Shown here: positions 2,678 through 61,940 of the stretch, piece after piece
Position numbering within the stretch: position 1 is the stretch's first letter
Layout of the letters: the number at the start of each line of letters is the position of its first letter
IMG/VR virus record: IMGVR_UViG_3300044731_001604
Coordinates: 32,001 to 96,000 of that record
Source: a virus
Length of the DNA: 64,000 nucleotides
Strand: one strand, 5' to 3'
Notes under the pieces: model-generated
Databases searched by the model: none
The model's input: only the letters and a program-made list of their open reading frames with translations
What the model was told of the DNA's origin: nothing
Program-made: the position numbers and the translations under genes

Positions 2678-2869
2678 ATGGAAATAATTATGGAATTATA
2701 TAAGCTTTTAGTTGTTAGAAATAGAGAAAAGAAGGTTATTGCCGAAAACTTGAGCAAAGAAGAGGTGTCTGTAGCAAAGACAGATTGGGCAACTATTTAT
2801 AATAACGACGTTTATTTCGATCCAGTTCCAGTGTTATTGGTTGAAGTGCAGCGTGAGGGTGAAGAATGA
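2678..2869 (+). CDS. Hypothetical protein heading the array (not a family member)
   Basis: ORF track; ATGA overlap with first family gene; start could be 2690. Confidence 0.6.
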   Translation: MEIIMELYKLLVVRNREKKVIAENLSKEEVSVAKTDWATIYNNDVYFDPVPVLLVEVQREGEE

Positions 2870-3066
2870 GGAAACGCGAGCAGGCAGAAGTACATAACGC
2901 CTTGTTCTATCAAGTAAGGTACATTCTAGATGTAATTCAAGAACCTGAAGAAGTTACAGAATATACTATTATGGATATCTTGTTAGATAATCGACTCAGA
3001 CCTGTTGATGTTGCTGAGTTGCAAAAGCAAGTAAGATATTTTATTGCGAATCGGAATATAAGGTAA
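2866..3066 (+). CDS. MKKRxQ-family small protein A1
   Basis: MRKREQ start, 66 aa. Confidence 0.75.
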   Translation: MRKREQAEVHNALFYQVRYILDVIQEPEEVTEYTIMDILLDNRLRPVDVAELQKQVRYFIANRNIR

Positions 3067-3070
3067 ATAT

Positions 3071-3268
3071 ATGGTCAAAAGAAGGCAGCTAAGTGATTTT
3101 CTTAAAAAGTATCTCTACAATAAGCTTTATAGCCAGTCTATGATCACAACTGAATACGTTTGGGACAAAGTATGGTACAGCACTAGACCTGATCTCTACC
3201 TATTGCTTCATGTTAATATCGAAATAGAAATTACTAAACACATAAGACAAATTAAGGCCACTAAATGA
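3071..3268 (+). CDS. MKKRxQ-family small protein A2
   Basis: MVKRRQL start. Confidence 0.75.
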   Translation: MVKRRQLSDFLKKYLYNKLYSQSMITTEYVWDKVWYSTRPDLYLLLHVNIEIEITKHIRQIKATK

Positions 3269-3456
3269 GGAAAAGAGACCAGATTGATGATTCTAAATTT
3301 TTTTGGCGATTAGTTGACCGCACCTTATCTTGGCGCATAGACGATGAACTTGGGGCATATCTTAGATGGCAATTTCGCGACAATTTAGATGATAACCTTT
3401 ACTATCACTTGTATAGACACATAAGCGATTTCTTAAGGCAAGAGGAATTAAAATGA
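3265..3456 (+). CDS. MKKRxQ-family small protein A3
   Basis: MRKRDQI start, 4-residue periodicity, ATGA overlap. Confidence 0.8.
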   Translation: MRKRDQIDDSKFFWRLVDRTLSWRIDDELGAYLRWQFRDNLDDNLYYHLYRHISDFLRQEELK

Positions 3457-3632
3457 GAAGAAGAAATTCAATTGATGCATACCATAGACTATTGCTCTCT
3501 CTTGCTAAGAATTCAGGTAAAGTCGTAAAAGATGACTATTTTAACAGACTTATGGATATAGTTCGCGAAGGGGCTAACCAAGAAATGAAAATTAAGCTCT
3601 ATGCCTATTTAAAAGATGTGAGGTCAAAATGA
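3453..3632 (+). CDS. MKKRxQ-family small protein A4 (59 aa)
   Basis: Not in track; MRRRNSIDAY...; ATGA overlaps at both ends. Confidence 0.7.
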   Translation: MRRRNSIDAYHRLLLSLAKNSGKVVKDDYFNRLMDIVREGANQEMKIKLYAYLKDVRSK

Positions 3633-3811
3633 AGAAACATATTCACATGGACGACATGTTTTATATAAAAATGCATACAGCCATAAAGTCTAGATTAGAT
3701 GATAGTTTGTACGATAGATTGTATTTTATATTTTTAGACGACAAGATGAATTGCATTAGGCGTGAATTGAGAAGACATATAGCAAATTCTCTCGTAAGAT
3801 GGCACAGATGA
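3629..3811 (+). CDS. MKKRxQ-family small protein A5
   Basis: MKKHIHM start, periodic LDDSLYDRLY core. Confidence 0.7.
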   Translation: MKKHIHMDDMFYIKMHTAIKSRLDDSLYDRLYFIFLDDKMNCIRRELRRHIANSLVRWHR

Positions 3812-3987
3812 GAAAACGAGAATTTATTGAAAAAAATTTTCATGAAAAAATCTATGAAAAATACCACGATCAACTTGATGCAAATTTGCATTTTAAATTA
3901 CACCAAAAAATATACCACGAACTACGTGAAGACATTTATTGGGAATTATATAAACAAGTTAGGAACATAGTAGCTAATTGGAGCTAA
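3808..3987 (+). CDS. MKKRxQ-family small protein A6
   Basis: Start revised to MRKREFI (ATGA overlap). Confidence 0.75.
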   Translation: MRKREFIEKNFHEKIYEKYHDQLDANLHFKLHQKIYHELREDIYWELYKQVRNIVANWS

Positions 3988-3988
3988 T

Positions 3989-4174
3989 GTGAAGAAACGT
4001 AAGCAATTAGATAAATTCTTTTTCAGAACACGAATGAGGTTGAATAAAGACATACCATTTCGTTTATATTCTAGTGGCCGCGTAAATCATTATATTGATT
4101 CATCTTTGACAAACAATTCTGTATGTAGCGGTATTATATTGTTAATTAAATCAGAAATCGAGGGCGAAGAATGA
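3989..4174 (+). CDS. MKKRxQ-family small protein A7
   Basis: GTG start, KKRKQL. Confidence 0.7.
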   Translation: MKKRKQLDKFFFRTRMRLNKDIPFRLYSSGRVNHYIDSSLTNNSVCSGIILLIKSEIEGEE

Positions 4175-4383
4175 GGAAGAGGGAGAGGGCCAACCTTCAG
4201 GTTAGAAGGTTAGTAGATTACATACCATGCGATATACTTACGGCTGGGTTAACAAGCAGAATCAGCTTTAAAGCCGCTGATATGTATGATATACTTAAAG
4301 TGGGTATTATTAATAGGCTTATACATTGCATACAAGACTATGATTCAAAAAAGGCATCAAATGAGGCGAAGAGAAATACTTAA
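4171..4383 (+). CDS. MKKRxQ-family small protein A8
   Basis: MRKRER start, ATGA overlap. Confidence 0.7.
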   Translation: MRKRERANLQVRRLVDYIPCDILTAGLTSRISFKAADMYDILKVGIINRLIHCIQDYDSKKASNEAKRNT

Positions 4384-4570
4384 CCAGCAGTTTTATATTT
4401 GGAACGAAAGCCAATGGATTGATAAGCTTTGGTATCAACTTGGAAGCGAGAGAACTAAGGTATTGATACCATTTATTAAAAACCATATTGGTGTTGAACT
4501 TAAAGAACAGATATATGGACAGCTTAAGTGTAATTTGAGATTACATGTAAGAAATACTGAAGGGATTTAA
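4361..4570 (+). CDS. MKKRxQ-family small protein A9
   Basis: Start revised to MRRREIL inside track ORF 4286..4570. Confidence 0.7.
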   Translation: MRRREILNQQFYIWNESQWIDKLWYQLGSERTKVLIPFIKNHIGVELKEQIYGQLKCNLRLHVRNTEGI

Positions 4571-4571
4571 G

Positions 4572-4751
4572 ATGATAAAAAGAATTCCTATTTCTAGTGA
4601 AAAGATTAGCGATAAGCTTTTTGATATGGTGTATAGTCAACCTTATTATGGAATGCGAAAGCGTATTCGTAATCAACTTAGTGTTAAGCTCAGTAACCAA
4701 TTATATCAGGAATTGATTTTGCCTATTGCCTATCAAAAGAGGGTTAATTAA
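4572..4751 (+). CDS. MKKRxQ-family small protein A10 (59 aa)
   Basis: Not in track; MIKRIPI...IRNQLSVKLSNQLYQEL...QKRVN. Confidence 0.75.
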   Translation: MIKRIPISSEKISDKLFDMVYSQPYYGMRKRIRNQLSVKLSNQLYQELILPIAYQKRVN

Positions 4752-4752
4752 T

Positions 4753-5001
4753 ATGAAAAAGCGAAAACAGTTGGAGAATCAGTTCGGGTATCAGTTGGGG
4801 TATGAGTCGGTGAATCAGTTGGTGAATCAGTTGAGGTATCAGTTGGTGTATCAGTTGGTGTATCAGTTGGTGTATCAGTTGGAGAATCAGTTGGTGAATC
4901 AGTTGGAGAATCAGTTGAGGTATCAGTTGAGGTATCAGTTGAGGGATCAGTTGGTGAATCAGTTGAGAAAAACTGAAACTGTTTACAAGAGGGTTAATTA
5001 A
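4753..5001 (+). CDS. MKKRxQ-family small protein A11, near-perfect (QLxx)n repeat
   Basis: Start revised to MKKRKQL at 4753; 82 aa. Confidence 0.75.
   Translation: MKKRKQLENQFGYQLGYESVNQLVNQLRYQLVYQLVYQLVYQLENQLVNQLENQLRYQLRYQLRDQLVNQLRKTETVYKRVN
4768..4968 (+). repeat. 12-bp tandem repeat CAGTTG-RDG-DAT, 16 units plus a partial
   Basis: Read directly; encodes QL[VERG][NYD]; two units carry point changes (QFGY, ESVN). Confidence 0.95.
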
Positions 5002-5002
5002 T

Positions 5003-5185
5003 ATGAAAAAGCGAAAACAAATTGCAGACATATCATTTAATGTTTTCAGAGAAGCATTTATTACACAGATTTATAAAAAAAGTGACTTAAAGTATAATTG
5101 CATAATTGATGAGCAACTGACCTCTAAATTAGTAAATCAGACTCTTGGATATCAAATACGATACTTGATTATAGGTTTGTTCTAA
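5003..5185 (+). CDS. MKKRxQ-family small protein A12
   Basis: MKKRKQI start. Confidence 0.75.
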   Translation: MKKRKQIADISFNVFREAFITQIYKKSDLKYNCIIDEQLTSKLVNQTLGYQIRYLIIGLF

Positions 5186-5365
5186 ATGGTTAAAAGAATC
5201 CCACTCAAAGACGGATTATATGTTAAAATAGACAGTGCTTTTAACTGCCAGTTAGAGTACAAAGTCTATACGCTGCTTCGTGAAAAGCTTTTCGTTGTTC
5301 TTTGGGACGAAATTAGGGATCAACTTGAAAGAAATGTCAGAATATCTTTAAAAAACAGGGCATAA
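5186..5365 (+). CDS. MKKRxQ-family small protein A13 (59 aa)
   Basis: Not in track; MVKRIPL...LWDEIRDQLERNV. Confidence 0.75.
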   Translation: MVKRIPLKDGLYVKIDSAFNCQLEYKVYTLLREKLFVVLWDEIRDQLERNVRISLKNRA

Positions 5366-5366
5366 G

Positions 5367-5540
5367 ATGAGGAAAAGAGAGCAGATTGATAACATTTTAT
5401 TTGTTCAATTTACAGATGTGCTTAAAGACTCATTTGGGGACAATGTAAGCATGCCATTTTTTTATAAGATAATGCTGGCATTACAAGGGGAATTAGTTGG
5501 CGAACTTTATAGACAATTAGAATCACAGGTGTTGAGATGA
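5367..5540 (+). CDS. MKKRxQ-family small protein A14 (57 aa)
   Basis: Not in track; MRKREQIDN. Confidence 0.75.
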   Translation: MRKREQIDNILFVQFTDVLKDSFGDNVSMPFFYKIMLALQGELVGELYRQLESQVLR

Positions 5541-5734
5541 AGAAACGAGAACAACTGATAACTAACTTATATTTTAAATTTTATAAGAAATATAACGATT
5601 TGCCAAATGAGGAAACTTTTGATATAATCAACGGAGAACTTGGCGATAAGTTAAATAGACAGATTTGGTATCCTGTTCGTGGGGAGTTATTCGATCAACT
5701 TTATTGTCATACTATTAAGAAAGAAGCGAAATGA
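5537..5734 (+). CDS. MKKRxQ-family small protein A15
   Basis: MKKREQL start. Confidence 0.8.
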   Translation: MKKREQLITNLYFKFYKKYNDLPNEETFDIINGELGDKLNRQIWYPVRGELFDQLYCHTIKKEAK

Positions 5735-5940
5735 AAAAACGAGTTCAAATACCTGGGCATCTTGGTGACAAATTGTGGGAACAACTGGCTTACACCATGA
5801 GCGGTCAATTAAGATTCAAGCTTAAAATGGTTTTAGCAAACTCTAGTTTAGTTGATGAATATGACACTGCTGCGGCGCATTGCCACCTTAGAAAAAATGT
5901 TTATTGCCACCTTAGATTTAACAGTGGGATTAGAAAATGA
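5731..5940 (+). CDS. MKKRxQ-family small protein A16
   Basis: MKKRVQI start. Confidence 0.8.
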   Translation: MKKRVQIPGHLGDKLWEQLAYTMSGQLRFKLKMVLANSSLVDEYDTAAAHCHLRKNVYCHLRFNSGIRK

Positions 5941-6107
5941 GACAACGCGATCAAATATATAGACATTTTTCTTCGCATTTAGATTATGAACTAAAGTGTT
6001 TGTATAGAAATCAATTTGATGAGTGGTTGTTTTATCATATTGGGCGAAACATAGGAAATACTGTCAAGTATGATCTTATTAATTTGCAGGAATTGTTGGG
6101 AAAATGA
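5937..6107 (+). CDS. MKKRxQ-family small protein A17 (56 aa)
   Basis: Not in track; MRQRDQI; ATGA overlaps at both ends. Confidence 0.75.
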   Translation: MRQRDQIYRHFSSHLDYELKCLYRNQFDEWLFYHIGRNIGNTVKYDLINLQELLGK

Positions 6108-6295
6108 GAAAGCGCGAAGAAATAAGTGTTATAAACAGCATAGACCAGATTTCTAGAAACAAAATGCTTATTCAAGTAGGTACGCCTGTACGTAATCAGA
6201 TTGTTAGCAGATTGCGCGACAATCTTTTAAATGAACTATTAGACCAACTGTATATGCATACGGCTTATTACCTCAATGAGAGGGTGACAAAATGA
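6104..6295 (+). CDS. MKKRxQ-family small protein A18
   Basis: MRKREEI start. Confidence 0.8.
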   Translation: MRKREEISVINSIDQISRNKMLIQVGTPVRNQIVSRLRDNLLNELLDQLYMHTAYYLNERVTK

Positions 6296-6489
6296 AAAAA
6301 AGGATTGAGATTGATTCCATGGTTTTTGATAAGATTCAGGAGCATCTTTTTAATTTTTATTTCGATAAGAGAATTGATCGGTCGCTATACAAGAAATTCT
6401 TAGATGATCTTGAGGAATCTGACGCAAACAATTCCGTCAATCTTATAATGTCGGCAGTAATTTGGCGCATTGAAAGGGAAACACTATGA
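6292..6489 (+). CDS. MKKRxQ-family small protein A19
   Basis: MKKRIEI start. Confidence 0.8.
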   Translation: MKKRIEIDSMVFDKIQEHLFNFYFDKRIDRSLYKKFLDDLEESDANNSVNLIMSAVIWRIERETL

Positions 6490-6683
6490 AAAAACGTGAT
6501 CAAATTAACTATCAACTTTATGAGCTATACTTTGAATTTAATAAACTGTATCCAAAGTTATCATCAACAAATGATTATTACGTAATTAATACTGCAACAA
6601 GAACAGCACTTTATGATATGTTTTACGGTGAAATTAGATGGCATCTTAAAGGTTTTGTGAGAGATTTTAAGGGTTTGTCATGA
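6486..6683 (+). CDS. MKKRxQ-family small protein A20
   Basis: MKKRDQI start. Confidence 0.8.
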   Translation: MKKRDQINYQLYELYFEFNKLYPKLSSTNDYYVINTATRTALYDMFYGEIRWHLKGFVRDFKGLS

Positions 6684-6874
6684 TAAAGCGTAAGCAGATT
6701 AACGACAAAGTACATAGTAGACTACTCAAAGTGTGCTTTTCTAAATTAAAATTACCCAACAATGTTTACTTCGCAATTCATGACAGGCTTACTGAAAAAC
6801 TATATGAAATTAGTTGGGGGCAGATTAGAAGCAAGGTTTACGACGAAATACATATGATAAGTAAAGTGAATTAA
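6680..6874 (+). CDS. MKKRxQ-family small protein A21
   Basis: MIKRKQI start. Confidence 0.8.
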   Translation: MIKRKQINDKVHSRLLKVCFSKLKLPNNVYFAIHDRLTEKLYEISWGQIRSKVYDEIHMISKVN

Positions 6875-6875
6875 A

Positions 6876-7067
6876 ATGACTAAAAGATATCAATTAACAG
6901 ACAGATTATATACCAGCGTACTAAGAGTATACATGCCGTCCTCTTCTTGGGTATATGACATGCTGCTTGATGAAATTTATAATCCCATTTATTTACAACT
7001 TAGGGATCAACTTAGAGAACACGTTCGCAACAGTATCGAATCGTTAAAGCAAAGTGAACTAAAATGA
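6876..7067 (+). CDS. MKKRxQ-family small protein A22
   Basis: MTKRYQL start; LQLRDQLREHV. Confidence 0.8.
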   Translation: MTKRYQLTDRLYTSVLRVYMPSSSWVYDMLLDEIYNPIYLQLRDQLREHVRNSIESLKQSELK

Positions 7068-7261
7068 TTAAAAGAGAGCAGATCGACAGCCAGATAGATA
7101 TTATATTATATGCATACGTTGATGAACAAATTTATTATCAATTGGATAAGCTTTTTGAAAATTTCTTGAGAGAAGAGCTTGATGACCAATTATATACGGA
7201 GCTTGATATAAATCTTCGTCTTGAGCTGTACAGATATCTAAATAATGGGGTATTAAGATGA
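7064..7261 (+). CDS. MKKRxQ-family small protein A23
   Basis: MIKREQI start; strong 4-residue periodicity. Confidence 0.8.
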   Translation: MIKREQIDSQIDIILYAYVDEQIYYQLDKLFENFLREELDDQLYTELDINLRLELYRYLNNGVLR

Positions 7262-7443
7262 AGAAGAGAGAATGTTTAGAGATGAAATTAGGTGATAAAC
7301 TAGCTTTCAAATATTATAATGAGTTACAAGATGGCCAACACCATTTAATATACGCTCATGTAAAAAAAACTCTCGTGAAAGAGGTTCACCAAAATGTTAG
7401 AACTCAGCTAAGTGCCTATCTGAGAGCAGAGGTACCAAAGTGA
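7258..7443 (+). CDS. MKKRxQ-family small protein A24
   Basis: MKKRECL start. Confidence 0.8.
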   Translation: MKKRECLEMKLGDKLAFKYYNELQDGQHHLIYAHVKKTLVKEVHQNVRTQLSAYLRAEVPK

Positions 7444-7661
7444 TAAAACGCGAGCAGATTGATAGTCATATATATACTTTTATCTATGATGATTTATACA
7501 ATCAGCTATATGGTCAAATTAGCGTCACGTGCGGTAAATGGACATTTGACTATGTTTACAGTAGTTTAACTTTGCAGTATTATAACTTATCATCAGATGG
7601 CCAGTACAGCTCTTTGGTAAACATCGTTTTAACTGATCTAGAGAAAAAGGTGTTGAAATGA
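7440..7661 (+). CDS. MKKRxQ-family small protein A25
   Basis: GTG start, IKREQI; GTGA overlap. Confidence 0.75.
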   Translation: MIKREQIDSHIYTFIYDDLYNQLYGQISVTCGKWTFDYVYSSLTLQYYNLSSDGQYSSLVNIVLTDLEKKVLK

Positions 7662-7837
7662 GAAAAAGAGAGCAGATTGACAACACATTGGATGACAATA
7701 TAAGAGACATTTTGAATGTCAGCTTGGGCTCTAACTTTAGAAATCAAATGTTTTCACGTATTTATAGAAATGTTAGCGCAAGGGCTGATCTGCTACATTT
7801 TATATATTACTATATAAGTACACAAAAGGTTAAATAA
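7658..7837 (+). CDS. MKKRxQ-family small protein A26 (59 aa)
   Basis: Not in track; MRKREQIDN. Confidence 0.75.
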   Translation: MRKREQIDNTLDDNIRDILNVSLGSNFRNQMFSRIYRNVSARADLLHFIYYYISTQKVK

Positions 7838-8037
7838 TGAGGAAAAGAGTACAGATAGACAGACAAATTAATGAGAATCTCAGAGACCCTTTTTACGTAA
7901 AGCTTAGTAATCAATTTAATTATTATGCTTACAATGACATTAGGTCTAACCTATACCCAGAACTTTTCTTGATTGTATACGATCAATTATATAATAATAT
8001 ATATTATGTCATGAGAGAATTGGTAGTGTCAAAATGA
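7837..8037 (+). CDS. MKKRxQ-family small protein A27
   Basis: MRKRVQI start. Confidence 0.8.
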   Translation: MRKRVQIDRQINENLRDPFYVKLSNQFNYYAYNDIRSNLYPELFLIVYDQLYNNIYYVMRELVVSK

Positions 8038-8279
8038 AAAAGCGAGATCGGTTACTAGATAACACAATGAGTCGGTTAATAGATCTTTTAGAAGACAGGC
8101 TTGAGAATAAGATAGTGGATTATTTGGGTTGTCAGTTAGATGATAAGTTATATTATGAGTTTAGAAGTGAGTTAAGAATTAAGTTTTATGATCGGTTAGT
8201 AGATCAAATGAATAATCAACTAAGACATCATTTAAGGACGCAAGTATATGGAGTCGAGAGAAAACATAGAAATATTTGA
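8034..8279 (+). CDS. MKKRxQ-family small protein A28, repeat still visible in DNA
   Basis: MKKRDRL; recurrent GATCGGTTA-like units. Confidence 0.8.
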   Translation: MKKRDRLLDNTMSRLIDLLEDRLENKIVDYLGCQLDDKLYYEFRSELRIKFYDRLVDQMNNQLRHHLRTQVYGVERKHRNI

Positions 8280-8427
8280 TTATACTCGTATAATAATGAG
8301 ATCGTCATATTTTTCTTCTAACAAAATTATATTTGAAACAGATCAAAAGCTCATGTGTATGCTAATTCCATTTTTTCTAGAAATGAGGCAGCAAATCAGG
8401 GAGCATATTACGGGCAATTGCAAATGA
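8248..8427 (+). CDS. Divergent family member A29 (59 aa)
   Basis: Not in track; MESRENI...MRQQIREHI; fills the gap and ends in an ATGA overlap. Confidence 0.55.
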   Translation: MESRENIEIFDYTRIIMRSSYFSSNKIIFETDQKLMCMLIPFFLEMRQQIREHITGNCK

Positions 8428-8603
8428 AGAAACGTAAACAGATTTTCTTGAAGGAATATAACCGCGTATTTACTAAAATGGGTATGCCACTTCCGTCTTC
8501 AGTTGAAGAGGCGGTAGAAACTCAGTTAAAAGATAAGCTTAGGGATGAATTGTTACACCAACTTAGGCTTCACGTTAAAACCCATTTAATGGAAATGAAA
8601 TGA
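8424..8603 (+). CDS. MKKRxQ-family small protein A30
   Basis: Start revised to MKKRKQI. Confidence 0.8.
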   Translation: MKKRKQIFLKEYNRVFTKMGMPLPSSVEEAVETQLKDKLRDELLHQLRLHVKTHLMEMK

Positions 8604-8794
8604 TTAAAAGAAAAATGATACAATACAATTTTAAGACTTTGTTCCACGATTGCCTGTATTCTCAACTTGAGCCAATATTGTATCATAGGCTAAGAGACAG
8701 CTTAAACCATAAGCTTCAGCACTATACGCATAACCCACTTAAGATAGAGCTTTACTATCACATGAATGAAAAGAAAAGCTCCAATTCTAATTAA
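8600..8794 (+). CDS. MKKRxQ-family small protein A31
   Basis: MIKRKMI start; stop overlaps the convergent gene's stop. Confidence 0.8.
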   Translation: MIKRKMIQYNFKTLFHDCLYSQLEPILYHRLRDSLNHKLQHYTHNPLKIELYYHMNEKKSSNSN

Positions 8795-35587: not shown

Positions 35588-37714
35588 TTAATATATCTCT
35601 CGCCATTGTAATCCAGCTGATATATTTGTGGCTTTTGTATCAATATTTTTAACAATTATGACATAAACTTCCGAGTTAGTAGAATCAAAATTTTGCACTA
35701 TATAGTTCTTTTTAGCCGAACTTGGAATTACTGCATTTGAATCGCTTCCAGCCTTACTTCCGCCTTGTGACGCAGATGCTGCAAACCCAACGCTTAGTAT
35801 GTCTGCATTTGTATATCCAGTCGCATTAGCTAGATATTCAACGCCACTTTCAGAGTTAGTACTGGTCCACACTCCAGCTCCACCTGTTAAGTTAGACGCA
35901 TTTTGTAATTTTGCTATAGAAAATTGAACGTTACCAGAATCAGTGAAAACTGTAACTTGTCCTAGTCTAGCTAACATACGATTTAAATATGTTTTATAAT
36001 TATTTTTCAATCTAATTGCTAATATTGGTAAAGTTTGACCTGTGCCCAAAAGTCTTGGTGTGGGACTTGCAAGCGCCCAATCAATTCCAGCCTCAACATA
36101 TCCGCCTTCACTAACAACTGTACTACAAATTTGATCCATATATGCACCAGTTGTAACTCCGGTGTTAAATATTTCGCAGCGAACTGGCAAATTTGGATTA
36201 CTCATATAAACTGTAGTAAGATTATTTTCGCCATCAAAATGATGCGCCTCAATATATTTACCCTCATGAGAAAACCCAACCCTGACTCTTCCCACGCCAA
36301 GCCATTGAAAATCTATAAAAAGCAACTGAGTTTTTGTAATATCTAAGTTTAAAGAACTAATTCCAGTTCCATCGCACTTGTCAACATTCCAATTTAACTG
36401 AGAAACTCTATTTTCATTGACGGCACCATTAATATAGCTTCTTAAGACAATATTTAAGGTTCCGTTTCCGGTTTGTTCAAAGTAAATTCCATTATTATCA
36501 TCAAACAGCCCAGTTCTTTTTGTCACCCCTGAAGTACTTGAATAAAAATTAAAGGATGACATTATTAGCTGGCTTTTTCCTGGCATATAATGATGATAGC
36601 ATTTGGTCTGGTGTATCGCCTTACTATTAACATCACTGCTGGTAGTCAATCTCGCGCATGCTTTATTTGATTGAAATGAAATAGTTCCACCATTTAATGT
36701 ATAGTCTATGAAATTTGGGTCTATTCCGTAGAGATGTTTATAGTCTCCAAGGGTATACGGCTCGCTCACTCTTTGTCTTGCAAAAGCATCTAGTGTGCCG
36801 ACCCCAGGAGTTGTAAAAACAGATCCGGATACTACCCACGGATTTGTTCCTTGATTTGCAGTAACTGTTCCGTTTACAGTTTGAGTTGCCGGGAAATTAC
36901 CAACATCAACTGTTCCGTTTACAGTTTGAGTTGCCGGGAAATTACCAACATCAACTGTTCCGTTTACAGTTTGAGTTGCCGGGAAATTACCAACATCAAC
37001 TGTTCCGTTTACTGTTTGTGTAGCTGGGAAATTACCAACATCAACTGTTCCGTTTACTGTTTGTGTAGCTGGGAAATTACCAACATCAACTGTTCCGTTT
37101 ACTGTTTGTGTAGCTGGGAAATTACCAACATCAATGGAAGAGTTTAAAAAATATACGTCTAACCCAATATCAGTTCCAACAGTATGCGATGTTAAAAAAT
37201 TGGTTCCGTCTCCAAGACGAACAGAATCATTTGTATGTGTAAGATCAACGTCTAGGCTAACTTCTGGCTTAATTGTAATATTTGCATCAACAGCAAGTCT
37301 ATTAACTCCATTTTCATCTGCTACAAATTCTGCATACTGACCATATTTATCTACGAGGATTGATCTTTTTGCATTTATTGGATCTTCTGCATGACTAGCT
37401 CTTTCAAAAATCTCCATTCCCATCGGATTTCTTTGTTGTTCCCAAGCAGTTAAGGTTCCGCCGGAGTACGAAGTAGGATTGGAAAATGTGGCCATGTCTT
37501 TTCCAACTGGACCGACTTGAATCTGAGTGTCAGAGATAACTCTCTTAATTTCAAGCTCTAGTTGTTCTAAGCCTGTTTTATTTAAATATACCAATTGTTT
37601 AGGATGTAATAATCCTTGAGTATCTGGTACTGTAATTATATGATTTGAAACTTGAATCGGATTGGCTAAAAATGTAGGCCACCGTCTATCAAACGACGAA
37701 GTTAACTTGCTCAT
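35588..37714 (-). CDS. Virion/appendage protein with 15-aa repeats and lectin-like C-terminal domain
   Basis: Six DVGNFPATQTVNGTV repeats; C-term DAFARQRVS...KRTGLFDDNNGIYFE...WLGVGRVRVG; start could be 37735. Confidence 0.6.
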   Translation of the reverse strand: MSKLTSSFDRRWPTFLANPIQVSNHIITVPDTQGLLHPKQLVYLNKTGLEQLELEIKRVISDTQIQVGPVGKDMATFSNPTSYSGGTLTAWEQQRNPMGMEIFERASHAEDPINAKRSILVDKYGQYAEFVADENGVNRLAVDANITIKPEVSLDVDLTHTNDSVRLGDGTNFLTSHTVGTDIGLDVYFLNSSIDVGNFPATQTVNGTVDVGNFPATQTVNGTVDVGNFPATQTVNGTVDVGNFPATQTVNGTVDVGNFPATQTVNGTVDVGNFPATQTVNGTVTANQGTNPWVVSGSVFTTPGVGTLDAFARQRVSEPYTLGDYKHLYGIDPNFIDYTLNGGTISFQSNKACARLTTSSDVNSKAIHQTKCYHHYMPGKSQLIMSSFNFYSSTSGVTKRTGLFDDNNGIYFEQTGNGTLNIVLRSYINGAVNENRVSQLNWNVDKCDGTGISSLNLDITKTQLLFIDFQWLGVGRVRVGFSHEGKYIEAHHFDGENNLTTVYMSNPNLPVRCEIFNTGVTTGAYMDQICSTVVSEGGYVEAGIDWALASPTPRLLGTGQTLPILAIRLKNNYKTYLNRMLARLGQVTVFTDSGNVQFSIAKLQNASNLTGGAGVWTSTNSESGVEYLANATGYTNADILSVGFAASASQGGSKAGSDSNAVIPSSAKKNYIVQNFDSTNSEVYVIIVKNIDTKATNISAGLQWREIY
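36863..37132. repeat. 45-bp tandem repeat x6
   Basis: Two synonymous variants in blocks of 3+3. Confidence 0.95.
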
Positions 37715-38037: not shown

Positions 38038-38229
38038 TTATTTGCCTATTTTTTCTTCATATAATTGTTGGTGAGTTTGATCTCTTAATTCGTACCAGAG
38101 CGTGATGTCTTTTAATTGCTCCCAAATTTGGGCATACATTTGATCTGATATTGTGGAATGGAGCCACATATACAGTTCGTCCCTAAATCTCTCTCTTAGT
38201 TTATCCCGAAACTGCTCTCTTTTTCTCAT
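38038..38229 (-). CDS. MKKRxQ-family small protein C2
   Basis: MRKREQFRDKLRERFRDELY. Confidence 0.8.
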   Translation of the reverse strand: MRKREQFRDKLRERFRDELYMWLHSTISDQMYAQIWEQLKDITLWYELRDQTHQQLYEEKIGK

Positions 38230-38421
38230 TTATGTATTTTTCTTTTGGGTTTCGTGACAGATTTGTTCACATATTTGATCAATCAATTCTGCATTGATTT
38301 CATATATTTCTTCCCAAGTCCCTTCTAAAACATTATCAATAACGTCACCATATACGTTTCTATCAATCATTTCATATAAATGATCTTTGATTTTTCTATA
38401 TATCTGATGACGTTTTTTCAT
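38230..38421 (-). CDS. MKKRxQ-family small protein C1
   Basis: Start revised to MKKRHQI. Confidence 0.75.
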   Translation of the reverse strand: MKKRHQIYRKIKDHLYEMIDRNVYGDVIDNVLEGTWEEIYEINAELIDQICEQICHETQKKNT

Positions 38422-41390: not shown

Positions 41391-41582
41391 ATGAGGCAAA
41401 GAGATCAGATAAATAGAATAAGCAACAAGTATTTTGATCATATTGACGGCGACCTTTATAATGAAAATTTTCATTTAATATCAGATTATCTCCAATACAT
41501 TTTATACATTGAGCGCTCACCAGTCGATAACATTGTTGACGAGCTATCCACATATATTGAGACTATGAATTTGGGGAATTGA
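41391..41582 (+). CDS. MKKRxQ-family small protein D1
   Basis: Start revised to MRQRDQI. Confidence 0.75.
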   Translation: MRQRDQINRISNKYFDHIDGDLYNENFHLISDYLQYILYIERSPVDNIVDELSTYIETMNLGN

Positions 41583-41587
41583 TTTAA

Positions 41588-41785
41588 ATGAAAAAACGCA
41601 AGCAGATAGACGGAATCCTTTTTACGATTATTGAAAACAATCTTTACCATCAGGTATACTACGATGTCAATTCAAAAAATCGAGAAAAGATCTATACAGG
41701 AATTTACGAACTGCTTATGGATGAACTAAATGTTAAGTTAATAAATATTATTAACGATTTTATTAAATCGAGAAGAGCATCATGA
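41588..41785 (+). CDS. MKKRxQ-family small protein D2
   Basis: MKKRKQI start. Confidence 0.8.
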   Translation: MKKRKQIDGILFTIIENNLYHQVYYDVNSKNREKIYTGIYELLMDELNVKLINIINDFIKSRRAS

Positions 41786-41979
41786 AAAAAAGGGTTCAGA
41801 TACCTGATTTTTTAAATGAAAACATATGCGATCATCTTAGATATAGCATATATGTTCAAGTTGATGATACTATTTGGCGTGTAATACTATCTGAACTATA
41901 TATAAAACTTCATGATAAGCTTAACAATACGTTAATTAATGAAACCTGGGATTATATTAAAATGGGGCCAAAAATATGA
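41782..41979 (+). CDS. MKKRxQ-family small protein D3
   Basis: MKKRVQI start. Confidence 0.8.
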   Translation: MKKRVQIPDFLNENICDHLRYSIYVQVDDTIWRVILSELYIKLHDKLNNTLINETWDYIKMGPKI

Positions 41980-42182
41980 AAAAGCGCATCCAATTTAATG
42001 ATCCTCTATATAATATATTCTATCCTAAAATTAGAGATAGAGTTAGGCTTGAAATAAAATATAAAACTTTTGAAAAGATAAGCAAGAGACTCACTGGTGA
42101 GCTTAATTCGCAATTCTGGGGCCAAATTGGATATCAGATTGGTAAATACATCGAGGATAGGAGTTCAAGTGAGAAGGCGTGA
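41976..42182 (+). CDS. MKKRxQ-family small protein D4
   Basis: MKKRIQF start. Confidence 0.8.
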   Translation: MKKRIQFNDPLYNIFYPKIRDRVRLEIKYKTFEKISKRLTGELNSQFWGQIGYQIGKYIEDRSSSEKA

Positions 42183-42351
42183 GCAGATTACTGATCAGCT
42201 TAGGGATAATGTTTGGGAATCTTTAAACGGGCAGCTCCAATATCAAATTGAACCAGATATCTATAATAGGCTGCATGACGTTCTGTGCGAAGAAAAGAGA
42301 TACAGACTCATAAGCCAATTATATTTATATTTAAGGACTAGGGTTAACTAA
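42169..42351 (+). CDS. MKKRxQ-family small protein D5
   Basis: Start revised to GTG-RRREQITDQLRDNVW after AGGAG. Confidence 0.75.
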   Translation: MRRREQITDQLRDNVWESLNGQLQYQIEPDIYNRLHDVLCEEKRYRLISQLYLYLRTRVN

Positions 42352-42555
42352 ATGAGGAAACGAGAACAAATCACTAGTCAATTTTCATATCAACTTTGGG
42401 ATAGACTTAGAGATGACATATACGTGCAACTGTATTCCTCATTTAATGAGGACATACACAATAAACTCAGGGACAATCTTTGGCTTGAGCTGCAAATATT
42501 ATTGTACGATAGAACGTATAGCTATTTGCAAAACTATATAGGCAAGAAGCAATGA
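42352..42555 (+). CDS. MKKRxQ-family small protein D6
   Basis: MRKREQI; QLWDRLRDDIYVQLY. Confidence 0.8.
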   Translation: MRKREQITSQFSYQLWDRLRDDIYVQLYSSFNEDIHNKLRDNLWLELQILLYDRTYSYLQNYIGKKQ

Positions 42556-42728
42556 AGAAGAATAAAATTATAGAATTTAAATTAAGAGTTAGATTAAAAG
42601 AACAAATCACAAAATCTTGTGGTTCAGATTGTATCAGCACGTCAAGAAAAAAGCTAAGAGAATTATCATCTTACGACTTATATAAAGCGGCTGTTGGAGA
42701 AATTGTCTCTGCTTCTGTGTCAAAATAA
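42552..42728 (+). CDS. Divergent family member D7 (58 aa)
   Basis: Not in track; MKKNKII; ATGA overlap. Confidence 0.5.
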   Translation: MKKNKIIEFKLRVRLKEQITKSCGSDCISTSRKKLRELSSYDLYKAAVGEIVSASVSK

Positions 42729-42747
42729 ATATTTTTTAATATTTTTC

Positions 42748-42776
42748 TTGCTTTTAATATCAGATATTGGTAATCT
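42748..42776 (+). promoter_or_regulatory. sigma70-type promoter
   Basis: TTGCTT-17 nt-TAATCT with extended TG. Confidence 0.5.
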
Positions 42777-42794
42777 AGGTTTATTGGAGGCGTT

Positions 42795-43184
42795 ATGAAA
42801 TTCAAAGCCGGAGATAGATTTATAGTTAAGGCAAGCGAGTCTGATTTAGGAGCCACTGGAAAAATAACTGGAATTGGGTTTAATTCTATACGCCAATCTG
42901 ACGAATATAGATATGTTTGGGACCAGCAATTCGGCGGTTCTACTGGGAGCTGTGATACAGAAGTTGGGGATTCTATGTGGGACATTATTGCGGCAGATAT
43001 CCACACACATACATACACACATGTTTACACAATTCCTGAAGACAATTATACAATTTCAGTTGGAAACATCGTTTGGAACAATCCTACTTCCAACTCTACA
43101 AATTGTTCCCACGAATATAAAATGTATAATGGATTTACTGAAAGTTATGAATTTTGCATTAAATGCGATAAAAGAAAGATCTAG
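42795..43184 (+). CDS. Hypothetical protein with C-terminal CxH...CxxC
   Basis: GGAGG RBS; CSHEY...CIKC. Confidence 0.7.
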   Translation: MKFKAGDRFIVKASESDLGATGKITGIGFNSIRQSDEYRYVWDQQFGGSTGSCDTEVGDSMWDIIAADIHTHTYTHVYTIPEDNYTISVGNIVWNNPTSNSTNCSHEYKMYNGFTESYEFCIKCDKRKI

Positions 43185-43188
43185 TAAT

Positions 43189-43407
43189 ATGAGGAAAAGA
43201 GAGCAGCCTAATAATTTGTTTTTTAACCAACTTGTCATAAAGCTTAGGGATCAAGCTGAAAACCAACTTTGTGATAATTTAAGTTATCAACTACATGATA
43301 ATCTTAAGCTTTACAAGATTTGTGAACAGTTTCGCAATACAGCTCTTAATATTATTCGTACACAATCATTAAATGATATTGATAATAAATTAAAAAGAAA
43401 GGTTTAA
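43189..43407 (+). CDS. MKKRxQ-family small protein E1
   Basis: Start revised to MRKREQ; QLCDNLSYQLHDNL. Confidence 0.75.
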   Translation: MRKREQPNNLFFNQLVIKLRDQAENQLCDNLSYQLHDNLKLYKICEQFRNTALNIIRTQSLNDIDNKLKRKV

Positions 43408-43408
43408 C

Positions 43409-43756
43409 ATGGAAAATCTATATCTAGACAAAGAGGCTTTTCTTGAAGATGAATATGTGTCTGAGGTTGTAATCATTGACACGTTACCTGGCGGATTTAA
43501 CCAGAGATCTGAATTATTGCCTGAGCCAATTGAAATTTTGAAATTTGAGAAAGTTAGCAGCAAGTTATCTTTGGAAAGAAAAGTAAGACTATCTGCAAAT
43601 TATATTACTGCAGAGGAGGGTCTTAAAATGATCCAAAAAAGTGAGAGACTACACGCCAAATCTAATAGAAAATGTACTTCTTGTGGAGGATACGTCCCAA
43701 AAGAAAATTTTAGTAGATGCAATACTTGCGTTAAATTAAAAAATGTGGTAGACTAA
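43409..43756 (+). CDS. Hypothetical protein with C-terminal zinc ribbon
   Basis: CTSC...CNTC. Confidence 0.65.
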   Translation: MENLYLDKEAFLEDEYVSEVVIIDTLPGGFNQRSELLPEPIEILKFEKVSSKLSLERKVRLSANYITAEEGLKMIQKSERLHAKSNRKCTSCGGYVPKENFSRCNTCVKLKNVVD

Positions 43757-43778
43757 TTAGATAAAATAGGTAGTTAAT

Positions 43779-44000
43779 ATGAAGAAACGTAAGCAAATAT
43801 CAGATCATATAAGTAATGATTTAAAGTTTGAGCTTTTTGATAGGCTTGAAGAGCAGGTTGATGGTGAACTTTTTGATCAAATTGATGAGGAACTTTTTGA
43901 GTACGTTACAGGTGGAAGCTACATTGACATAGATGTAAACTTAATAAAAGAACAGTTGTTTTCTCATATTGAAAATATAAATGGCCGAAAGGTTGGTTAA
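43779..44000 (+). CDS. MKKRxQ-family small protein E2
   Basis: MKKRKQI; ELFD/ELFE x3. Confidence 0.8.
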   Translation: MKKRKQISDHISNDLKFELFDRLEEQVDGELFDQIDEELFEYVTGGSYIDIDVNLIKEQLFSHIENINGRKVG

Positions 44001-44001
44001 A

Positions 44002-44208
44002 ATGAAAAAACGAGAAGGAATGAAGATTTTGCCGAAAGATCAAATTAGTCCTGAAGTTTGGGATAGAATCGTTAGCCAGCTTGAGAATCGTCTTAACGGC
44101 CAAAATAAAGCCATAGAGGCGCCAAAAAAAGAAGGCTTTGTAAGATTTCTTAAATATAAGACATACTTTAATGCAATTAAAAATCTATTTAATAAGAAGG
44201 GCGGTTAA
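44002..44208 (+). CDS. Hypothetical protein, possible divergent family member E3
   Basis: MKKREG start; EVWDRIVSQLENRL. Confidence 0.55.
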   Translation: MKKREGMKILPKDQISPEVWDRIVSQLENRLNGQNKAIEAPKKEGFVRFLKYKTYFNAIKNLFNKKGG

Positions 44209-60770: not shown

Positions 60771-61940
60771 CTATTTCTTTTCAGCTACAGTACCAATTTT
60801 GCCATCGTCTGCTGCTGCATTGTGGGAAACTACAGAAATAGCTTGCCCAGTAGTTGGATCTGCAACTTGTCCGGAAGCAACTGATCTCCAAACGGCTTTA
60901 CCATTTATGACCACTTTTTTCTTCCTTCCTTTAACAGACCCTGGAGGTAATTTTAATCTTAACGCTTTATTAAGCTCATCTGTTAAGATCTCTCCCTTTT
61001 TAATTCTATCTTTCTTTGCCATATCTAAAAGCTTGTGAACTAATGACATAGATTGTTTAAATGCAGCTGGGTCTTTAGTTTTAAGATCCATTATTTGTGG
61101 CAATTTTTGTTGAATATTATCTAAGAGTTTTCCAATTTTATTATTAGAATCATCTTCTTTATCTTCTTCAGGTTTTTTTTCTTCAGATTCTTTTTTAGGC
61201 GCAGCTTCTTTTTGTTCCTCTTTGTCCTGTTCTTTTTGGTCAATATGAGAAACAGGTTTATCTGTTTTCTTTTGATCGCCAGACATCGCTTCTAATAAGC
61301 TGCCAGGTTGTTGTTGAGCTTGTTGTTGCATTTGCTGTTGAGCTTGTTGTTGCATTTGTTGGGCAGGTCCCATTAACTGTTGCAATACACCATTTACTAT
61401 TTGAGAATCAGCTTGGATTGATTGATTAATATCTAAACCTGGTACGTAATTCCCAAAATCTTTTTTATCTTTTGTTGGTTTTGGAGGCTCTGGATTAGTT
61501 CTATCAGATAGATTTGGTTGGAAAATTTCTTCGCCTATCTCAATAGATTTCTTCATTTCTTTAATAAAAGAATCTTCAGGATCAAACAGCTCAATTTGAT
61601 TTGTTAAAACAGATTTTTTTGCTGCCATTACTGCTTCATTTGGCGTTAATCCCATGCCAACTGACATTTTAGTAGTGAACACATCTTTGTATCCAGCTAG
61701 TATTAATGGTAATTCTTCTGCCACGGTTACTGGCATTTCTAAAACTTGTCTAGAATACGTTGTAAGACGTACTGTTCCGCCACGCTCAGATATAAGAGAG
61801 TTAATTTTGTCTGATATTGCAAATAACTGATCATTTAAGCTTGTTGCTTCAAAAAACATTCCAGCGTCAATCATTTCATTGATTTTATCTTGAACACCAT
61901 CAGAATTTACTACACACCATACAGAACTTTGAGTACTCAC
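60771..61940 (-). CDS. Protein with degenerate mCpol/GGDEF-like N-terminal domain and Q/K/E-rich tail
   Basis: ERGGTV...Y......MSVGMG....EA..A.K pattern; catalytic DGD and GGDE motifs replaced. Confidence 0.55.
   Translation of the reverse strand: MSTQSSVWCVVNSDGVQDKINEMIDAGMFFEATSLNDQLFAISDKINSLISERGGTVRLTTYSRQVLEMPVTVAEELPLILAGYKDVFTTKMSVGMGLTPNEAVMAAKKSVLTNQIELFDPEDSFIKEMKKSIEIGEEIFQPNLSDRTNPEPPKPTKDKKDFGNYVPGLDINQSIQADSQIVNGVLQQLMGPAQQMQQQAQQQMQQQAQQQPGSLLEAMSGDQKKTDKPVSHIDQKEQDKEEQKEAAPKKESEEKKPEEDKEDDSNNKIGKLLDNIQQKLPQIMDLKTKDPAAFKQSMSLVHKLLDMAKKDRIKKGEILTDELNKALRLKLPPGSVKGRKKKVVINGKAVWRSVASGQVADPTTGQAISVVSHNAAADDGKIGTVAEKK

Follow-up and report, generated by a model that had tools for sequence, protein, structure and literature searches.

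A11, a near-pure 12-bp repeat gene between identical junctions, as a probable resident of an old phage family of small helical proteins

A gene built almost wholly of one short repeat, which begins like its downstream neighbour and ends like its upstream one, raises the question of whether it was made in place only recently or belongs to an older family. Such a gene, A11, lies between the genes A10 and A12 of a phage. Herein, we analysed a part (bases 32001-96000) of an IMG/VR virus record that has 157,572 bp and a completeness rating of 98%; this whole stretch of 64,000 nucleotides is called the window, and coordinates refer to it unless genome or contig positions are named. The initial annotation had regarded A11 as a newborn gene, produced by duplication of a gene junction and in-frame filling of the gap with repeat DNA. 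The features concerned are listed below.

2866-8794, plus strand: main array of approximately 30 back-to-back family members, including A11
4572-4751, plus strand: A10, a diverged member of 59 aa that contributes the left half of the junction repeat with its last codons
4737-4769, plus strand: junction repeat, copy 1; end of A10 (K-R-V-N-stop), AGAGGG, a spacer base, and start of A11 (ATG, KKRK, and the CA of a Gln codon)
4753-5001, plus strand: A11 coding sequence, defined as an open reading frame; 82 aa with an MKKRKQ start, 17 tetrapeptide units, and a short Y-K-R-V-N tail
4768-4971, plus strand: 12-bp unit array of A11; 17 in-frame Q-L-x-x units
4987-5019, plus strand: junction repeat, copy 2; K-R-V-N-stop of A11, a ribosome site as in copy 1, and start of A12
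5003-5185, plus strand: A12, a diverged member of 60 aa that contributes the right half of the junction repeat with its first codons
33128-33301; 38038-38421 (minus strand); 41391-44208; genome position 105120: further family members

The repeat gene and its two junctions

The A11 tract was described by TRF with a period of 12, 16.5 copies, and 86% matches. Counted in frame there were 17 units, 14 of which followed CAGTTG-RDG-DAT exactly, with units 2, 4, and 17 deviating. Per-position tables revealed that the variation among units fell almost entirely at positions 7, 8, and 10 and was all non-synonymous; the Q codons, the L codons, and the third codon positions were invariant, as was the A at unit positions 2 and 11. 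The flanks of the array are short, with 6 residues ahead and approximately 11 behind, and AlphaFold2 predicted one continuous alpha-helix from residue 2 to residue 81 (mean pLDDT 92.5). For A11, A10, and A12, no Pfam family rose above threshold, and PHROGs likewise gave none. At the DNA level A11 is unlike its neighbours, with a G+C content of 0.40 against 0.29-0.35 and with a Q-L codon pair, CAGTTG, that served for just 1 of 40 Q-L dipeptides in the other family members of this phage, which leaves room for an arrival from elsewhere. The 12-mer unit had no further occurrence anywhere else in the genome.

That a 12-bp repeat gene stands between identical 33-mers, as the initial annotation had described, was confirmed. 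The two copies are exactly identical direct repeats spaced 250 nt apart. Each contains the final four codons of the upstream gene with its stop and, past one spacer base, five full codons and two-thirds of a sixth from the start of the downstream gene; the Shine-Dalgarno-like AGAGGG lies within this stretch. This content bears out the statement that A11 has its start in common with A12 and its end in common with A10. Among the 435 junction pairs of the 30-gene array, the next-longest string common to two junctions was 17 nt, and the 33-mer is thus a clear outlier. Homology hidden outside the 33-mer was rejected, since the DNA just beyond the copies was no more alike than shuffled sequence (p 0.13-0.99). 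The unrelated flanks give the 33-mer sharp edges, and these in turn require a discrete, recent copying event.

The 33-mer had also been likened to the target-site repeats of an insertion. It is instead a functional cassette boundary, holding the ribosome site, the stop, the start, and KKRKQ, and a 42-nt exact bracket recurs in the array of another phage. Insertion of a transposable element with target-site duplication was rejected because no inverted repeats were present (none in 4400-5400 and none flanking the A11 tract), the 33-mer is functional, and the insert is itself a family gene. A search of IMG/VR with the exact 33-mer returned no usable close-relative locus.

Assembly and length variation at the locus

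Considering that tandem repeats are mishandled by short-read assemblers, the tract or the junction duplication might have been produced by an assembler, and misassembly had been named at the outset as a finding that would overturn the newborn reading. However, the A10-A11-A12 structure was spanned by six independent metagenome assemblies from different pipelines, which gave the identical sequence except that one differed by exactly one unit. Contigs of JGI 3300042505, 3300042891, and 3300034355 carried the 17-unit form and were identical to the window over A10-A11-A12, and a 66-kb contig of 3300059473 had the same 251-nt spacing at A11. The ENA contig ERZ27272080, from another assembler, carried 16 units encoding a 78-aa protein; it had lost one of the three identical consecutive units at 4840-4875 and otherwise differed from the window by 2 SNPs in 5.7 kb. 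Three Logan unitigs break off within the 33-mer, at window base 4766, which could be taken to favour an artefact. The Logan graph is built at k=31, and at this value such ends would be expected from a true 33-nt repeat. The independent spanning assemblies thus indicate that the A11 structure is not a misassembly, and we consider the chance of an assembler's product to be negligible.

The 16- and 17-unit alleles indicate ongoing slippage, or unequal exchange within the array, and make the array a hot spot, in keeping with the earlier suggestion that slippage acts on it. The A11 body is kept nearly pure, and its length changes in 12-bp steps. Of the two kinds of variant that the initial annotation had proposed to look for, a unit-number variant (16 units) was found in the contigs, but an empty site was present in none of those spanning A11. 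Both SNPs of the ENA contig lie just upstream of the first array gene, 4 bases apart at window positions 2704 and 2708.

The recorded gene calls include A11 on the ENA contig and on the JGI 3300034355 contig, but omit the identical A11 in contigs L010 and L012 and in the 66-kb contig of 3300059473, leaving a 251-nt gap. Pure-repeat genes of this type are thus under-counted in protein databases.

Two closer relatives, known from gene tables only, have A9 orthologues that are 87-91% identical: a 10.4-kb Logan sequence (SRR23086397) and an 8,958-bp JGI sequence (3300059473). Both have the same array beside the same structural genes. The A9-A14 interval, which holds 4 genes here, holds two genes in one of these relatives; in the other a 59-aa gene is followed by a gap of 194 nt without a gene call, at the position expected for A11, and then by two more genes. 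The differing cassette number indicates that this interval turns over cassettes. The 194-nt gap by itself proves little, because the callers passed over an identical A11 in three JGI contigs too. No usable close-relative locus came from blastn of the array against INPHARED, and no usable locus from searches of IMG/VR and JGI metagenomes with the flanking 215-aa and 384-aa proteins or with the A9-orthologue alignment.

Relatives of A11 in this genome and in distant phages

The genome contains approximately 45 small genes with an M-[KR]-K-R-x-Q start, for which neither Pfam nor PHROGs gave a family. Their proteins carry a period-4 hydrophobic (leucine) comb, with a mean spectral power of 1.12 at period 4 vs approximately 0.2 at 3.5-3.6; A11 aside, the comb reached significance in comparison with shuffled sequences in 33 of 41 members. 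A single uninterrupted helix was predicted for the diverged member at 7064-7261 (mean pLDDT 91.7), and short remnants of 12-bp tandem repeats are present in other members (3701-3723 and 8134-8186). In protein searches A10 as the query gave no matches and A11 gave one weak 133-aa match. A promoter and terminator scan of the array gave the same result as for shuffles.

A10 contains an internal M-R-K-R-I-R-N-Q-L (4653-4751), followed by x-x-x-L units and a Y-Q-K-R-V-N tail. From its sequence, A10 could tentatively be seen as a fusion in which loss of a stop joined a truncated upstream cassette to a short cassette of the A11 type; the match of its second half to an A11-type cassette was weak (BLASTP E 0.003, hhalign 12%).

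Outside this genome, a scan of IMG/VR for three consecutive A11 units returned mostly unrelated microsatellites. Five IMG/VR phage contigs (L038, L043, L054, L057, and L063) carried small MKKRK-(xxQL)n genes with a Y-K-G-I-K-type tail, and a protein-pattern scan added small start-plus-(xxQL)n genes with other tails in L103, L118, L120, and L094/L131. These foreign cassettes encode 55-95 aa and stand in tandem with conserved junctions. The relationship between the phages is distant, the major capsid proteins being 46.8% identical over 464 aa, and several syntenic genes of L103 are 37-47% identical to those of the window's phage. On the 119.5-kb contig L077/L057, five such genes lie head to tail. 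One L077 cassette (3001-3210) has a body of 12-bp units and is framed by 42-nt exact junction copies, and a third junction has 35-37 nt in common with them; it is a case of the pure-repeat members with duplicated junctions for which a search in related phages had been advised. In L103, two tandem genes have the same tail and an overlapping start, and their Q-L codons are CAGCTT, not CAGTTG. Across A11, L077, and L103, the Q and L codons and the third positions are fixed, and unit positions 7, 8, 10, and 11 vary.

BLASTP aligned A11 with foreign cassettes from residue 1 (E 1e-12 and 2e-11), and a profile made of foreign cassettes only ranked A11 first, at 70 bits (E 3.5e-22); both kinds of score may be inflated by composition when repeat proteins are compared. 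Composition has no bearing on the common start, edge units, and architecture, and the first units, LE[DN]Q[LF]GYQLG, are found in both A11 and the foreign cassettes. Among the 42 paralogues analysed, the same foreign-only profile matched 32 further members of this phage (E<=0.001), with scores that fall step by step from 37 to 11 bits and include those of A10 (18.7 bits) and A12 (16.3 bits). With A11 excluded, the diverged members aligned with the foreign cassettes over their full length in hhalign (98.3% probability, E 2.4e-14).

A11 has the M-x-K-R-x-Q/K start directly before the repeats, the x-x-Q-L body, the profile match, and the tandem junction of the family as defined here by alignment, and it is homologous to the foreign cassettes by both BLASTP and profile. 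The tails show a short resemblance only, Y-K-R-V-N in A11 vs L-Y-K-G-I-K in foreign cassettes, and those of L103 and L118 differ. In L077-type phages the tail is Y-K-G-I-K-Y-Y-E-E-T with an overlapping start, whereas in A11 it ends as Y-K-R-V-N-stop. Moreover, the arrays of the foreign phages have 2-5 members, all near-pure, whereas this phage has one pure member among approximately 44 diverged ones. No Pfam or PHROGs family covered the foreign cassettes, tblastn of a foreign cassette against INPHARED gave nothing, possibly through low-complexity masking, and a literature search on small stand-alone (xxQL)n cassettes found no paper.

In L103 the two pure-repeat cassettes (2983-3404) stand in tandem and on the opposite strand, flanked by orthologues of genome 122.1-122.3 and 123.07-123.34 kb. 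Since the corresponding place in the window's phage is free of family members, the cassettes occupy different sites in different relatives.

Origin of A11 and comparison with known repeat systems

Distantly related phages have homologues that agree with A11 in their start and first units, which indicates that A11 is not newborn, contrary to the initial annotation. That proposal, a duplication of the A10/A12 junction with in-frame filling of the gap by a 12-bp unit amplified de novo and no ancestor of A11 outside the lineage, would account for the exact, sharp-edged junction repeat, the near-pure body, and a CAGTTG that is atypical of resident members, as if from a single amplified seed; one closer relative also appears to be without cassettes in the A9-A14 interval. 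However, not only do the start, the first units, and the architecture recur elsewhere, but the same type of junction bracket frames cassettes there, and the degeneracy at the edges of the A11 array (units 2, 4, and 17 and the tail) is what an aged array with a homogenised core would show. No spanning contig shows an empty site, and the genome has neither a reverse transcriptase (RT) nor a template copy. A newborn origin is therefore very improbable.

The suggested likeness to spacer acquisition, or to RT-templated fill-in, fares no better, as the genome is without an RT and the 12-mer occurs nowhere else. A RecA-family recombinase gene was present in the rest of the genome, at genome positions 150515-151297. 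Writing of the variable unit positions by templated hypermutation of the diversity-generating retroelement type, or by another RT or primase-polymerase, might be suspected from variation that is confined to three unit positions and is all non-synonymous. Against it, no RVT_1 match was found in the 98%-complete genome, no template repeat lies elsewhere in it, and the variable sites are not template adenines, positions 2 and 11 being invariant A; the RT, the template repeat, and the adenine-specific change of a diversity-generating retroelement are all missing for A11. The same pattern in Tweety gp54 has been ascribed to selection on a slippage-prone array (PMC2884959). Templated writing has almost no probability here, and A11 reveals no new DNA-writing mechanism.

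We consider A11 to be, with fair probability, a resident and the least-diverged member of an old, slippage-prone phage family of small single-helix proteins, arranged in head-to-tail cassettes. The family plan would be a basic M-x-K-R-x-Q start, an x-x-Q-L body made from 12-bp units, and a short basic or aromatic tail, and each cassette boundary would have to accommodate a stop, a ribosome-binding site, and the following gene's conserved start. The fixed Q and L codons and third positions are a protein-level constraint and count in favour of this explanation. Changes in length may come about by replication slippage or unequal exchange within the array. Adjacent boundaries probably underwent a recent homologous event that gave the two 33-mers the same sequence. 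Short-patch gene conversion or unequal crossing-over would be the simplest candidates, with duplication or cassette insertion by junction homology as other candidate types; the RecA/UvsX-type recombinase that the phage itself encodes could assist in this. The other 44 or so members would be older copies in which the repeats have decayed to unique sequence and the helix with its period-4 leucine stripe has been kept.

Alternatively, A11 may be an old family member that is new to this site, having come from another array position or from a co-infecting related phage through junction recombination, a mechanism that would leave a copy of the junction at either side. Such an insertion agrees with the codon choice and G+C content of A11, which differ from those of its neighbours and resemble L077-type arrays, with the varying cassette number in A9-A14 among relatives, and with the placement of family genes at different genomic sites in them (L103, between conserved genes and on the opposite strand). 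However, no donor was found, the A11 unit is nowhere else in the genome, and a donor would have had to carry the same 33-mer to give identical junctions at both ends. Between the start region of A11 and the L077 cassette only approximately 13 of 18 bases agree, so any transfer from the L077 lineage was not recent. Arrival by insertion, with the junction copies left by that mechanism, is rather unlikely.

An origin of the family members from a pure (QLxx)n, with diversification afterwards, fits both the period-4 comb (33/41) and the graded match to the foreign profile, and for the family as a whole it is plausible that pure repeat came first and diversity later. A stronger version is possible but doubtful: the pure A11 would be a "germline" copy, homogenised by slippage and occasionally copied by recombination with the 33-mer as the handle, and the copies would decay into approximately 45 helices, possibly a library of binders against host defences. 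If this were true, approximately 45 different helices would have come from one four-residue seed.

The nearest described analogue of A11 is gp54 of mycobacteriophage Tweety, together with Che8 gp57 and PMC gp51. The gp54 array has 12-bp units with two invariant and two variable residues, in which positions 7, 8, 10, and 11 vary and third positions are invariant (PMC2884959), and this unit pattern was interpreted as selection for variation (PMC2884959). Gains and losses of repeats in Tweety tune counter-defence against Phrann gp29/gp30 (PMC9262239). A11 has the same unit-variation pattern, and its natural 16- and 17-unit alleles parallel the differences in repeat copy number between isolates of the gp54 group. 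By contrast, gp54 has 374 aa, with unique N- and C-terminal domains (approximately 140 and 40 residues) around (A-A-x-x)n, whereas A11 has 82 aa, no flanking domains, and a fixed Q-L pair and belongs to an array of multiple cassettes. The two proteins showed no sequence homology, and gp54 had no Pfam match; gp54 is an analogue of A11 and not a homologue. By analogy, the helices of the present family would probably be a length-variable, surface-variable set of binders of host or defence proteins.

DUF6745 proteins of phages and prophages were the top matches of the family profile, with 977 matching at E<=0.001 and 12 of these at E<=1e-30. Like A11, these have a central (x-x-Q-L)n array (D/G/N-Q-L-x), often with basic residues ahead of it. 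Unlike A11 and its paralogues, they are 350-720 aa long, with an N-terminal domain and a C-terminal DUF6745 (PF20530). The match to A11 covers the repeat only, and common descent of the repeat is possible. A literature search on DUF6745 and the repeat strings found nothing. Many IMG/VR contigs of approximately 30-60 kb end inside a DUF6745 (xxQL)n array (L080, L084, L085, L089, L091, L106, L109-L111, L116, L119, and L140), and such arrays thus commonly break assemblies.

A further organisational analogue, cited as such in PMC2884959, is VR2 in bbp36 of Bordetella phage BMP-1, a coding tandem repeat whose copy number varies by isolate. Its unit is 24 bp, and it lies inside a larger gene and is unrelated in sequence.

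A11 is a slippage-prone tetrapeptide-repeat phage protein in which nothing but the repeat is left and which has multiplied in the form of cassettes. Larger phage proteins are known to contain fast-evolving tetrapeptide arrays, one of which tunes counter-defence; here, the array is the whole protein, and the paralogues grade from pure repeat to unique sequence within one genome. This phage group thus offers a natural system for the expansion of repeats and their subsequent decay into new small proteins, and for the roles of single helices early in infection.

Some minor observations concern the repeats themselves. The antisense strand of A11 (4744-5031, minus strand) is an open 95-aa frame that also reads as x-x-Q-L repeats, because the reverse complement of CAGTTG, CAACTG, again encodes Q-L. 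The opposite strand of the L043 cassette (3717-3977, minus strand) is likewise open as x-x-Q-L repeats. Elsewhere in the window, six copies of a 45-bp tandem repeat with 98% identity (TRF score 460), unrelated to A11, occupy 36863-37134, and a TTGTTGTTGAGC-like 12/24-bp tandem repeat of approximately 4.5 copies lies at 61308-61361.
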